A stretch of DNA of 64,000 nt from an uncultured virus (IMG/VR IMGVR_UViG_3300025417_000001) (taxonomy: Duplodnaviria > Heunggongvirae > Uroviricota > Caudoviricetes): the IMG/VR virus record IMGVR_UViG_3300025417_000001, one strand, 5' to 3'. The position numbers and the translations under genes were made by a program. Positions 4,715-54,780 of this stretch are shown here, piece after piece (the first letter of the stretch is position 1; every line of letters begins with the position of its first letter). The notes under the pieces are model-generated. The model did no database searches. It had not been told where the DNA came from and was given only the letters and a program-made list of their open reading frames with translations.

Positions 4715-4740
4715 TAACTAGGTCAGTTACTAATACACAT

Positions 4741-4824
4741 AGCAGGGGTGTTTTTGCCTCCTTTCTTAGTTCCCTGCTCGCATAACCCTAGTCATTGTGG
4801 AAGGCGACTAGGGTTATTGTGTTT
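4741..4824 (+). ncRNA. putative 3'-UTR small RNA: anti-SD hairpin plus terminator
   Basis: agcagggg/tccctgct stem with loop TGTTTTTGCCTCCTTTCTTAGT, then ataaccctagtc/gactagggttat terminator. Confidence 0.5.
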
Positions 4825-4835
4825 CACGTGAAACT
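4820..4835. promoter_or_regulatory. parS: parS-like site
   Basis: TGTTTCACGTGAAACT; 14-bp core GTTTCACGTGAAAC identical to the chromosomal parS consensus. Confidence 0.75.
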
Positions 4836-4843
4836 CGGCGGCA

Positions 4844-4952
4844 AATGTTTGTGTTGACCCACCCACCCACACCTAGGGATATCTCCCTTGAAACCCTATA
4901 AGCCTATTGGCTTATTTGGCTAATAGCAAAGCTATTAGCCAACACAAACATT
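4844..4952. repeat. variant copy D of the TGTTTGTGTTG inverted-repeat element
   Basis: AATGTTTGTGTTG (4844-4856) / CAACACAAACATT (4940-4952) enclosing hairpins 4898-4915 and 4916-4942. Confidence 0.75.
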
Positions 4953-5187
4953 CCACGCGCTCGGGCGTGTCTGAGAGTCTGCTGAGAGAGCGGTGAGTGA
5001 GAAAAATCACACCACCGCGCTATTGACTTCTGAGAGAGAGCATGCTAGGCGCATTGGGCTACTGCCAAATGTCGCTAAATCGCTATGTAGGCATAAGACC
5101 AGATATTTGGATAGGGCTATCGGGGTGTTATGTGATAAGAGAGGGCGCGGTTGCAGAGAGGCAGAGAGGCTGAAAGAGCCACTAATT

Positions 5188-9500: not shown

Positions 9501-9968
9501 ATGGGATTAGATATGTTTCTAAAGGCAGAGAAACACGCTTCGGGATACTCGTTCTCCCCTGAGCAAGATAAAGAAATCTATAACCGCGTAGTTGATAGCG
9601 TAGGTGCAAGACCTTTCGCAGATAGAAATACGCCTAGCGTAGATGTAACAGTAGCGGTCGGCTATTGGAGAAAGGCTAATGCTATCCATGGTTGGTTCGT
9701 GAAAGAGTGCCAAGACAATGTAGATGAGTGCCAGCAGACATGGATACCGAGAGATAAGTTACGAGAGTTAAAGGACTTATGCTTAGAAGTATTGGCAGAT
9801 AAGAGTAAAGCAGAGGAACTATTACCTACTACGCAAGGGTTCTTTTTTGGCAGTAATGATTATGATGAGAGTTACTTTCAAGACCTGAAGCAGACAGTAG
9901 AGATTACGAAGAAAGTGTTAGAAGAAATCCCTGAAGGTTGGGATATTTATTACCGCAGTAGTTGGTAA
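9501..9968 (+). CDS. conserved phage protein of unknown function (MGLDM...YWRKANAIH family)
   Basis: Recognisable MGLDMFL, YWRKANAIHGWF, GFFFG, YYRSSW motifs. Confidence 0.75.
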   Translation: MGLDMFLKAEKHASGYSFSPEQDKEIYNRVVDSVGARPFADRNTPSVDVTVAVGYWRKANAIHGWFVKECQDNVDECQQTWIPRDKLRELKDLCLEVLADKSKAEELLPTTQGFFFGSNDYDESYFQDLKQTVEITKKVLEEIPEGWDIYYRSSW

Positions 9969-9996
9969 TCAAATAGGAAATACAATTAAATAGAAT

Positions 9997-10123
9997 TAGA
10001 TAACCCTAGCGTGGTTGGTCAGACCTCAAAAACACTATCGTTGAAGCCCGTTATAGTTTAACTACTATACTTGCCTATACTGTCTGTTAGTAGCGTATCG
10101 CAGTATGCGCTAGGAGTTATCTA
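9997..10123 (+). ncRNA. putative structured RNA unit 1
   Basis: Closing helix tagataac-cctagcgtg-GTTG / CAGT-A-tgcgctagg-A-gttatcta. Confidence 0.55.
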
Positions 10124-10132
10124 GTAAAACAA

Positions 10133-10301
10133 TTAAATAGTGATTAGTTAATGAGTTGGACATAGGCAGACACCCCTTGAACAGTAGGCGTACCGCGTTG
10201 CAGTAAGGAAGGATTATTCCTAAATGCGGTCTAGTAGATAATCCCTTTTTAAGAAAGGACTAAATATGATTCTCAGTATCATTACGAGAATTACTATTTA
10301 A
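10133..10301 (+). ncRNA. putative structured RNA unit 2
   Basis: Closing helix ttaaatagtgatt...taatga-GTTG / CAGT-A-tcatta...aattactatttaa. Confidence 0.55.
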
Positions 10302-10308
10302 CAGATGT

Positions 10309-10408
10309 GGTAGCCTAGCCGAGTTGCGAGTAGATAACCTGCCGTATATACCCGTGGCACAGACGCTAACTTAGTTAGTGGTTGAAAGCAGTATCGGCTA
10401 GGATTACC
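10309..10408 (+). ncRNA. putative structured RNA unit 3
   Basis: Closing helix ggtag-cctagccga-GTTGC / GCAGT-A-tcggctagg-A-ttacc. Confidence 0.55.
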
Positions 10409-10433
10409 CAAACCTACAAAAGAAAGAAAGCAA

Positions 10434-10604
10434 ATGAAAACATATACGATAACCCTAGAAGTAGATGAACAATGGTTAGAAGCAATTAGAAATTTTACTA
10501 ATGATGTCTATGACGGCGAAGTGTGTAATTGGCTTAGCCTAGATGAAACTAGTAGAATAGTTAGGGTAGCAAGCGACGGCTCACTATTTTTAGGAGATGA
10601 TTAA
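10434..10604 (+). CDS. small hypothetical protein (56 aa)
   Basis: Manually translated MKTYTITLEVDEQWL... Confidence 0.55.
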   Translation: MKTYTITLEVDEQWLEAIRNFTNDVYDGEVCNWLSLDETSRIVRVASDGSLFLGDD

Positions 10605-10627
10605 CATGAACAGGAAAGGAACAAAAA

Positions 10628-10831
10628 ATGAGCATATCTAAATACTGCAAATTATGTGATATAACAGTAGGGGCGGATACAGAGGAAGCCCTTGAAACCG
10701 CATTACAGAACCATAAGGCTAGTTCAATGCACTCTAAAAACAAAGAGAGTAAAGAGAGCAAGAAGCAAGAGAGAGCGGAAAAAGAAAAAGAGAAACTTAT
10801 CCGCAAGTATTACCCTAATCTATTAGACTAA
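10628..10831 (+). CDS. small putative Zn-finger protein
   Basis: CKLC...H...H; RBS aaagga. Confidence 0.6.
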   Translation: MSISKYCKLCDITVGADTEEALETALQNHKASSMHSKNKESKESKKQERAEKEKEKLIRKYYPNLLD

Positions 10832-10856
10832 AACCAACACAAACAAAGGAAACAAT

Positions 10857-11577: not shown

Positions 11578-11626
11578 CTAAAGAGCCCCCTAGCACTTCT
11601 ACTAGGGGGCTCTACTATTTATATTT
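11578..11626. terminator. terminator between convergent transcription blocks
   Basis: agagccccctag/ctagggggctct 12-bp stem. Confidence 0.8.
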
Positions 11627-19070: not shown

Positions 19071-19234
19071 CGTTTAGTTTCCCGTTCTTCTGGGGTTAGC
19101 AGACTAGTGTAGACAGGAGCATTTGGGCCATCACCTTTTTGGATTATTTCGTGAACTTTTCCAGTTTTTGGATTAACTGAATAATCCATAACATGCTCTC
19201 TGGCTTCATCAAAATCTTTGTTATTACGTGGCAT
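19067..19234 (-). CDS. small hypothetical protein (55 aa)
   Basis: Manually translated MPRNNKDFDEAREH...; overlaps both neighbours. Confidence 0.6.
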   Translation of the reverse strand: MPRNNKDFDEAREHVMDYSVNPKTGKVHEIIQKGDGPNAPVYTSLLTPEERETKR

Positions 19235-19605
19235 TAAATTGTGCCCCCTAACGAGTTAGTGCTAGATGATTCTTGTGTATTAGGTGTTTGACTGAAATCG
19301 GACTCAACACGTTGGGTAGTTGCTACTCGGCGTGGCAAATTGATTAGGTCTTCAATGCCTATTTCTGTATCAGTATACCCGAACCGCGCTGGAAATAACT
19401 GTATCTGTGGCAGTGGGGGACGAACATACTCTTGAATTTCCGCGCCTGACATATTCCATGCGGCTAGGGATTGGCTCATTAGACGTTCTTGATTAGATTG
19501 AAAAGGTCCTATGTATTCTTGTGGAGGCATCGCTGCCTCTGCTGGTGCTGTCCAAGGGCGGCGGTTGTACACGCCATCTGCAAACTTTCCTGCGCCTTCT
19601 GCCAT
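19234..19605 (-). CDS. hypothetical protein
   Basis: ORF track. Confidence 0.7.
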   Translation of the reverse strand: MAEGAGKFADGVYNRRPWTAPAEAAMPPQEYIGPFQSNQERLMSQSLAAWNMSGAEIQEYVRPPLPQIQLFPARFGYTDTEIGIEDLINLPRRVATTQRVESDFSQTPNTQESSSTNSLGGTI

Positions 19606-54660: not shown

Positions 54661-54740
54661 GGATAATCTCCTAGGGAGTAGCAATGTAAAACGCAGGGGT
54701 TGTGCTTAGTTTCCCGCATGGAAACTAATATAAGGATAAA

Positions 54741-54766
54741 GCAAAAAGCCCCACAGAGTGGGGCTT
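54741..54766 (-). terminator. intrinsic terminator
   Basis: aagccccac/gtggggctt stem with T tract. Confidence 0.8.
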
Positions 54767-54780
54767 AATGTTTAAGTCTT

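Follow-up and report, generated by a model that had tools for sequence, protein, structure and literature searches.

Tandem structured RNA modules with a shared wobble and bulged-A handle in an uncultured freshwater phage

The 64,000-nucleotide (nt) IMG/VR stretch IMGVR_UViG_3300025417_000001 (the window), part of the genome of an uncultured freshwater myovirus, contains a tandem array of three structured RNA units at positions 9982-10408. The units belong to a small family of structured phage RNA modules, which is real and conserved. Each unit is closed by a helix of 16-23 base pairs (bp), about two turns, containing a short handle in which GUUG pairs with CAGU next to a bulged A. Comparison of the units with those of related phages shows that selection acts on the RNA structure of the + strand. 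We place it close to, though below, an even chance that the units are modular small RNAs cut from an operon transcript and that an RNase or another protein recognises them by the handle. The array was first proposed in a first-pass annotation of the bare sequence; its coordinates and motifs (GTTG, CAGT, the bulged A, CCTAGC/GCTAGG and the interior lengths) are all correct.

Architecture of the array

The units fill most of a gap of 465 nt (about 460 nt in the first-pass annotation) between a gene of 155 amino acids (aa) and an open reading frame (ORF) of 56 aa. No other real intergenic gap of the window is as large, and no + strand ORF of at least 30 aa was found in it. Its features are as follows.

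9982-9993, + strand: box 1, ACAATTAAATAG, 3 nt upstream of the unit 1 helix
9997-10123, + strand: unit 1, with a 21-pair closing helix (minimum free energy structure)
10129-10140, + strand: box 2, identical ACAATTAAATAG (sequence match)
10133-10301, + strand: unit 2 (inverted repeat and pair table)
10309-10408, + strand: unit 3, with an 18-pair closing helix (minimum free energy structure)

Units 1 and 3 are built to one plan. In unit 1, positions 9997-10017 pair with 10101-10104, 10106-10114 and 10116-10123 in blocks of 8, 6, 3 and 4 pairs, which are split by bulged A residues at 10105 and 10115. The handle is formed by 10014-10017 (GTTG) with 10101-10104 (CAGT), and the interior (10018-10100, 83 nt) holds a hairpin at 10053-10068. 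In unit 3, positions 10309-10326 pair with 10389-10392, 10394-10402 and 10404-10408 (blocks of 5, 6, 3 and 4 pairs); the handle joins GTTG at 10323 to CAGT at 10389, and the bulged A residues at 10393 and 10403 are the same two as in unit 1. The second of these bulges and the segment CCTAGC/GCTAGG occur in units 1 and 3. The 62-nt interior of unit 3 includes a hairpin at 10365-10379 (GCUAAC/GUUAGU).

What unit 2 has in common with units 1 and 3 is limited to one bulged A and the 4 + 6 innermost pairs. Its handle (10155-10158 with 10274-10277, bulged A at 10278) adjoins the helix 10149-10154 with 10279-10284 (TAATGA/TCATTA), beyond which an internal loop breaks the closing helix. Pairing resumes between 10140-10145 and 10290-10295, and the outer extension pairs 10133-10145 with 10289-10301; the interior measures 115 nt. 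The three units, of 100-169 nt and each with a terminal helix, are distinct sequences rather than copies, with a mean column identity of 58% when the three are aligned with gaps. Hairpin loops within the units are 3-6 nt long.

Related loci and copy number

Searches of 50,697 phage records (INPHARED) with blastn and megablast, using the array and 10 kb around it, gave no match. In IMG/VR, the ribonucleotide reductase (RNR) of the window recovered 80 loci at 76-91% identity, and the 155-aa gene lies within reach in only four of them (L115, L119, L138 and L193). RNR identity to the window phage is 89% in L138 and 81% in L119. In L138, ACTAAATAA and then one unit (L138_1) come after the stop codon of the 155-aa gene; the unit has GUUG/CAGU, a bulged A and a 15-bp helix. 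In L119, the stop codon precedes AACTAAATAG and two units, the first with the handle AUUG/CAGU (L119_A) and the second with AUAG/CUGU (L119_B). L138_1 and L119_A are the orthologues of unit 1. The closing helix measures 16 bp in both L119 units and 19 or 23 bp in L138_1. L193 (11111-11269, - strand) has the box AACTAAATAG and then a 147-nt unit with a perfect 12-bp terminal helix, without the handle; AAACTAAA, a partial copy of the box, recurs just past it and so stands on both sides. L115 has no unit; where the array would be, it has a small zinc-ribbon-like ORF.

All three units are also present in two metagenome contigs with about 93% identity to the window. One of these contigs (run X12) has 168 extra letters right after unit 3 (10409-10414), which may be a fourth unit. 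Copy number at this single site is thus 0 in L115, 1 in L138, 2 in L119 and 3 in the window, with a possible fourth in the X12 contig, in agreement with the proposal of exchangeable cassettes. The first unit stands directly after the stop codon of the 155-aa gene in every unit-carrying phage, and in 4/4 phages 23-36 nt separate the last unit from the start codon that follows. The co-occurrence of units and 155-aa gene holds within this small clade only; 80 other phages have the gene without the RNA.

Pairing, covariation and strand

The six handle-bearing units of the window, L138 and L119 were entered in a pair table with both arms in register, giving 78 cells for the four handle pairs and nine adjoining pairs. 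Sixty cells are Watson-Crick, 15 are G-U and none is A-C; the remaining three are unpaired, all in the internal loop of unit 2. Thus 96.2% of cells are paired, and in 9/13 pairs both partners change. No pairing measure was reached in any of 500 shuffles, and controls in which the partner was slid were 32-47% paired. Because there are 15 G-U cells against no A-C cell, it is the + strand that is selected as RNA, which upholds the RNA-level structure and strand given in the first-pass annotation. The 1- and 2-nt indels of relatives argue against a reading frame through the array.

The handle is conserved and covaries. Its second (U-G) and fourth (G-C) pairs are invariant across the six units, and the bulged A is present in all of them. 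The first pair is G-U in four units and A-U in two, and the third is U-A in five and flipped to A-U in L119_B. The consensus is therefore 5'-NUNG/CNGN-3' with a single bulged A on the 3' strand. A lack of covariation in related genomes had been named beforehand as grounds for giving up the proposal; these exchanges are covariation in related genomes. The flanks are also constrained: the base 3' of the 5' handle strand is G in 5/6 units (a 10327 C>G change gives G in unit 3 of the 93% relatives), as is the base preceding the 3' handle strand in 5/6 units. RNAalifold, given unit 1, L138_1 and L119_A, predicts the closing helix unaided, with 9/15 pairs compensatory. A covariance model of four units from which unit 3 was excluded (R1) recovers unit 3 at 15 bits (E 0.005 in 3.2 kb, filters off). 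Unit 1 scores 92 bits with R1 and 102 bits with a second model, R2; unit 2 is missed by R1 and is part of R2 (70.6 bits).

The 93% relatives differ from the array by 25 displayed substitutions and 11 indels, all in interiors or loops. None of these 36 differences falls on paired helix positions (110/412 nt), where about 10 would be expected, in a table that omits 71 further substitutions and one indel. In the central hairpin of unit 1, 10057 T>C is accompanied by 10064 A>G, a compensatory change.

The motif was also compared with chance. We scanned both strands of the window, and 200 block shuffles of it, for GTTG followed 30-220 nt later by CAGTA with 6/6 flanking pairs. The window has five sites on the + strand and none on the - strand, and three of the five lie within the gap; the shuffles gave a mean of 0.28 and a maximum of 3 matches for both strands together. 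Another + strand site, at 19319-19375 (flanking pairs TGGGTA/TACCCG), occurs in L134 as well; it is antisense to the ORF at 19234-19605, and its conservation is probably due to protein coding. Relaxed scans were swamped by noise (30 matches against 14-26 in shuffles, and 56 against 29-43).

Unit interiors

The interiors had been described as unrelated apart from three pentamers. They are indeed poorly conserved; orthologous units nevertheless have in common a central hairpin and, adjoining the handle, GGUCAG and GCAGUA. In the orthologues of unit 1, UUGGUCAG comes right after the helix and GCAGUA before it. A CUAAC/GUUAG hairpin is common to unit 3, L119_A and L119_B, and unit 1 has a hairpin in the corresponding region. 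All three pentamers do occur in all three interiors, and AGTAG (AGUAG) is enriched, with 8 copies in seven units against 1.08 expected and presence in 6/7 units. The other two fail statistically: CAGAC (5 copies against 1.07 expected) is not significant after correction for 1024 pentamers, and TTGAA is outside the 15 most enriched. An interior CAGAC/GUCUG helix in unit 1 was considered and rejected, as 10023 A>T is uncompensated in X12 and the partner segment is rewritten in the other 93% relative (X10). The suggestion that interiors might be complementary to phage mRNAs found no support in the window: three 12-mers and one 13-mer match the window mRNAs, a chance level (shuffle mean 1.9).

Searches for further members

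The models R1 and R2 were searched in about 1.4 Mb of loci from related phages. In 1.03 Mb of RNR-linked loci they returned the training sequences only, and a further 0.39 Mb, surrounding 80 additional homologues of the 155-aa gene, yielded no new member. In those 80 phages, another ORF begins almost immediately after the 155-aa gene, and a gap of more than 100 nt was seen in only 3/78 callable loci. Fifty of the 80 related IMG/VR records were also searched whole with R1, which produced nothing real; a match of 16.7 bits in G018 was rejected as it lies antisense inside an ORF and pairs poorly. A related-locus search with the 155-aa protein alone gave one weak match, and one with the CobT-like protein of the window gave none.

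Pattern scans covered a broader range. In IMG/VR, GCAGTATNNGCTAGGA was found in 108 stretches, with the partner motif upstream in 0/109 loci. A two-arm pattern matched four times, and the three matches inspected (L110, L111, L113) are all in coding-looking sequence. The box combined with TTGGTCAG and GCAGTA gave 85 loci, among which only the L119 and L138 contigs are real; L331, with 8/10 pairs, was judged a chance match. A pattern of gene end plus box gave 94 loci, with the 155-aa gene only in the L119, L138 and L193 contigs. Scans for box plus stem returned mainly coding false positives (L116 was checked). In Joint Genome Institute metagenomes, a stricter two-arm pattern had one match (L114), a chance one whose 3-bp segment is not complementary. 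In prokaryotes (one genome per species), there were four matches, in which R2 with filters off finds nothing; L460 is coding.

Rfam 15 had no match in the whole window at gathering thresholds, consistent with the claim of an undescribed RNA. At E <= 10, positions 9900-10500 gave two weak - strand matches only, RAGATH-35 (17.5 bits against a threshold of 38.9) and SNORD108 (14.6 against 46). ARAGORN predicted 0 tRNA or tmRNA genes in the 64 kb, and the units contain no T-arm or D-arm motif. No description of the element was found in the literature on phage Y RNA and YrlA, phage structured RNAs and anti-defence decoy RNAs. The family is hence very narrow and uncatalogued in Rfam; the catalogue of 10,006 candidate RNAs in PMC10690425 was not compared by sequence.

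Comparison with known RNAs and repeats

The nearest phage precedent for neighbouring stable RNAs is species 1 and 2 of T4 (rnaC and rnaD; NC_000866), two small stable RNAs of 139 and 119 nt that lie among accessory genes; the ends of rnaC pair together. Unlike the units, rnaC has a tRNA-type T arm (GGGUUCGAAUCCC) and lies in a tRNA cluster, and neither RNA has the NUNG/CNGN-A handle or an R1 match with filters off. The function of rnaC and rnaD is still unknown.

A second comparison is with Y RNAs and YrlA. PMC4201824 describes Y RNAs as molecules of 80-130 nt whose ends form a long stem with a protein site, followed by a large internal loop, with several paralogues per genome, phages included. 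The Ro60-binding motif is given there as GGUCCGA in metazoa and GNCGAAN0-1G in bacteria. The units are similar in having a terminal stem with a short conserved motif, a large variable interior and paralogues side by side, and they are of fitting architecture (100-169 nt, each with a terminal helix). We therefore considered whether they are Y-RNA-like or tRNA-like RNAs, either with a Ro60/Rsr partner or as tRNA mimics against tRNA-targeting defences. U1-type units have GGUCAGA where metazoan Y RNAs have GGUCCGA, and a homologue of the 155-aa gene in L257 is directly followed by a tRNA gene. GGUCAGA is nevertheless the nearest approach to the motif and is confined to unit 1 and L119_A; L138_1 has GGUCAGU, and units 2, 3 and L119_B differ. 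GGUCCGA and GNCGAAN0-1G are absent from the units, as are tRNA-like T or D arms, and the hairpin loops have 3-6 nt rather than 7. There is no Rfam match to Y_RNA, YrlA or tRNA even at E <= 10 and no ARAGORN prediction, and the Pfam scan of 62 window ORFs found no TROVE (Ro60) domain. A relationship of this kind is accordingly very unlikely.

The units also resemble transcribed intergenic palindromic repeats: repetitive extragenic palindromic sequences and bacterial interspersed mosaic elements (REP/BIME), enterobacterial repetitive intergenic consensus (ERIC) sequences and Correia elements, which are multi-copy and dispersed through genomes. Both are imperfect palindromes of about 100-170 nt in operons, G-U rich as RNA and variable in presence. 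Such likeness raises the alternative that the units are selfish or neutral palindromic insertions, akin to REP, ERIC or miniature inverted-repeat transposable elements, in a permissive intergenic hot spot. Being harmless when folded, they would be tolerated while doing nothing for the phage. Presence, absence and copy number vary at one site among close relatives, as in the 168-letter insertion; the two flanking copies of AAACTAAA in L193 resemble a target duplication, and unit ends look like terminal inverted repeats. In contrast to REP, ERIC and Correia elements, each unit is single-copy and all are at one locus. None is repeated elsewhere in the window plus 1.03 Mb (R1, R2) or in 50 whole IMG/VR records (R1), and the units of one genome are not copies of each other. 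The 15 one-strand G-U pairs and the compensatory changes indicate selection on a folded RNA rather than recent transposition, and a Pfam scan of 62 ORFs showed no transposase or HUH family. We consider insertion of this kind quite improbable.

Still less probable, in our judgement, is an element that acts as DNA, with hairpins or cruciforms used in replication initiation, packaging or attC-like site-specific recombination. Long imperfect inverted repeats with extrahelical bases do resemble folded recombination or single-strand initiation sites, and words like TAGATAAC recur three times in direct and once in inverted orientation. The strand asymmetry (15 G-U, 0 A-C), however, points to RNA. The outer RYYYAAC at the 5' end of attC pairs with GTTRRRY at the 3' end; the AAC/GTT layout at the outer ends is not found in the array, where GTTG is on the inner 5' side and pairs with CAGT rather than CAAC. 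The TAGATAA word of unit 2 is altered in the 93% relatives (10231, 10232, 10235, 10236). No integrase or replication initiator adjoins the array, and no integrase family was detected among the 62 window ORFs scanned. Other systems were dismissed: a retron msr/msd, as there is no reverse transcriptase domain among the same ORFs, and a ToxI-like type III antitoxin or CRISPR array, as the units are not copies and form no short repeat array.

The upstream box

As the first-pass annotation stated, units 1 and 2 are both preceded by ACAATTAAATAG (9982 and 10129), which has only these two copies in the window even with up to one mismatch. Nine bases of box 2, including 10133-10140, also belong to the outermost unit 2 helix. 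Ahead of first units, the box reads (A)CTAAATAG or ATTAAATAG and is conserved in 4/4 unit-carrying phages; L119, L138 and L193 have a related form, (A)ACTAAATA(G/A), 1-8 nt upstream of their first unit. The box is a candidate promoter or processing signal. Its TAAATA core resembles the T4 late promoter TATAAATA. A general late-promoter reading was dropped because the box does not occur before the structural genes of the window.

Genome context

The sequencing runs containing the window sequence are freshwater or aquatic metagenomes, with no RNA run among those listed. The window encodes a family A DNA polymerase, a DnaB-like helicase, a primase, RecA, a class II RNR, a DpdA-like transglycosylase, a CobS-like AAA protein, a CobT/vWA-like protein and T4-type sheath, tube and baseplate proteins. 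Genes run on the + strand to the left of about 11.6 kb and on the - strand in the remainder. The array lies within a run of small + strand ORFs, and the features nearby are listed here.

9501-9968, + strand: 155-aa upstream gene, phrog_7971 (PHROG match 1.1e-13), a family without assigned function
10434-10604, + strand: 56-aa downstream ORF, starting 25 nt past unit 3
10628-10831, + strand: 67-aa Lys/Glu-rich ORF with CxxC...HxxxxxH and sub-threshold Pfam hints only
11582-11613: bidirectional terminator

Pfam gave no match to the 155-aa protein, and no sequence in the PDB matched it better than E 0.25. Its AlphaFold model (predicted local distance difference test score 83) had no Foldseek match to a PDB fold at E <= 0.001. 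The last codons of the gene (9955-9965) read GCAGTAGTTGG, that is, a 3' handle strand abutting a 5' handle strand; GTTGCAGTA is also found within unit 2 (10198-10206), and relatives keep only AGTTGGTAA of that gene end (Ser-Trp-stop). These handle-like letters may be a coincidence or a trace of unit origin. In L257 (2980-3040), the 155-aa gene homologue is followed by a TATAAT-type promoter and the tRNA gene mentioned above. RNA genes seem to land at the position that follows the 155-aa gene.

Downstream of the units, the gene differs among the unit-carrying phages. The 67-aa ORF has sub-threshold matches to zf-C2H2_jaz (E 0.25) and zf-met (E 0.43), C2H2 zinc fingers of the type that binds double-stranded RNA. 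This ORF is no more than a lead towards a partner protein. In L115 and L138, small CxxC proteins are likewise encoded after the 155-aa gene or the units. In X10, 240 nt that include the ORF (10604-10845) are replaced by 180 other letters.

Two further structured regions were noted. The intergenic region 4715-4992 (+ strand), upstream of the CobS-like gene, is strongly structured (-95.9 kcal/mol, z -4.6). It has a 15-bp hairpin that has ATAACCCTAG in common with the 5' arm of unit 1, and a 13-bp long-range helix, TGTTTGTGTTG / CAACACAAACA, that encloses further hairpins. It contains no GUUG/CAGU-A handle and gave no R1 match at E <= 0.3 in a whole-window search with filters off. A short intergenic region on the - strand (54685-54780, z -5.5) has two very stable hairpins, the first a terminator-like GC stem followed by a T run.

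Proposed mechanism and alternatives

In the reading that we favour, the modules would be read from the + strand along with the small early-type genes of the operon around them. Each module has its two ends paired into a helix of about two turns, with the handle as its innermost four pairs and unpaired G residues flanking the junction. The modules would be excised from the polycistronic transcript within the AU-rich boxes between them, and the long terminal helix would protect their ends to leave discrete small RNAs of about 100-170 nt each. The handle would be recognised by an RNase or RNA-binding protein, and the fast-changing interior would be the variable part. Modules are gained and lost as cassettes at the single site right after the 155-aa gene. 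Transcription, excision, stability, a protein partner and action in trans are steps that we infer, and an anti-defence, decoy or guide role for the units is speculation.

The main alternative is purely cis-acting. RNase III processing stems are known from T7 early mRNA and from the flanks of 16S and 23S rRNA, where the stem formed by two flanks releases the enclosed RNA. The units may likewise be RNase III-type or exonuclease-blocking stem-loops that separate upstream from downstream message, so that the stems would set differential stability or translation with no trans-acting RNA product, as with the T7 sites or REP/BIME elements. This is possible but on the whole unlikely. With 16-23 bp and bulges, the helices are in the size class of RNase III substrates; set against a length of about 20 bp or more for an RNase III site, they fall on both sides of that value, and the helix of unit 2 is broken by its internal loop. 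Like RNase III stems, the units stand between cistrons that are transcribed together and make about two helical turns, with bulges or internal loops. The operon around them is co-directional, and they have neither a sigma-70 promoter nor a terminator of their own; the last unit is 23-36 nt from the next start codon in 4/4 phages, and the interiors evolve fast. One hairpin would be sufficient for such a role, yet the array has up to three different ones in tandem, with structured interiors of 62-115 nt. Conservation also goes beyond the need of a stability hairpin (the U-G wobble, bulged A, flanking Gs, GGUCAG, GCAGUA and the box), and the U-G and bulged-A handle is not known as an RNase III determinant. 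Because the downstream gene is not conserved among carriers, there is no fixed regulated target, and the close relative L115 keeps the gene order without any element.

Several observations weigh against small RNAs released from a transcript. The family is tiny: three genomes contribute six handle-bearing units, and two close variants are known from difference tables only, so that the covariation rests on few independent events. Part of the pairing comes from ascertainment, as the units were identified by their stems and the scan leading to L138 demanded six pairs. Given the differences omitted from the displayed table, helix invariance in the 93% relatives is suggestive, not proven. Bulk folding energy is modest and alike on both strands (z -2.78 on the + strand and -2.90 on the - strand, with 1/100 shuffles as good on each). 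No sigma-70-like promoter or intrinsic terminator was found in the array, and the box does not recur before other window genes. The poor conservation of orthologous interiors is awkward for a sequence-specific cargo acting in trans, and the spacing of the last unit from the next start codon fits a cis role equally well.

A bolder version of the released-RNA proposal is a cassette system for a dedicated ribonucleoprotein, in which a phage or host protein would read the U-G wobble and bulged-A handle and load any interior. The rapidly exchanged interiors would then be decoys, sponges or guides in the conflict between phage and host, and the system would be a phage counterpart of the paralogue sets of Y RNAs and vault RNAs, with modules swapped at one hot spot. 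We regard it as quite unlikely.

Phage structured RNAs are numerous, and nearly all are without known function. Among them, the present family has useful properties: its compact, sequence-specific handle offers a clean mutational test as well as a bait for a partner protein or RNase, and near-identical phages vary naturally in unit presence and copy number. The modular layout suggests a scaffold-plus-cargo design. If the handle is only part of a stability element, the array would be an ordinary case; if it is a processing or loading signal, it would represent a new means of packaging several unrelated small RNAs into a single phage operon.

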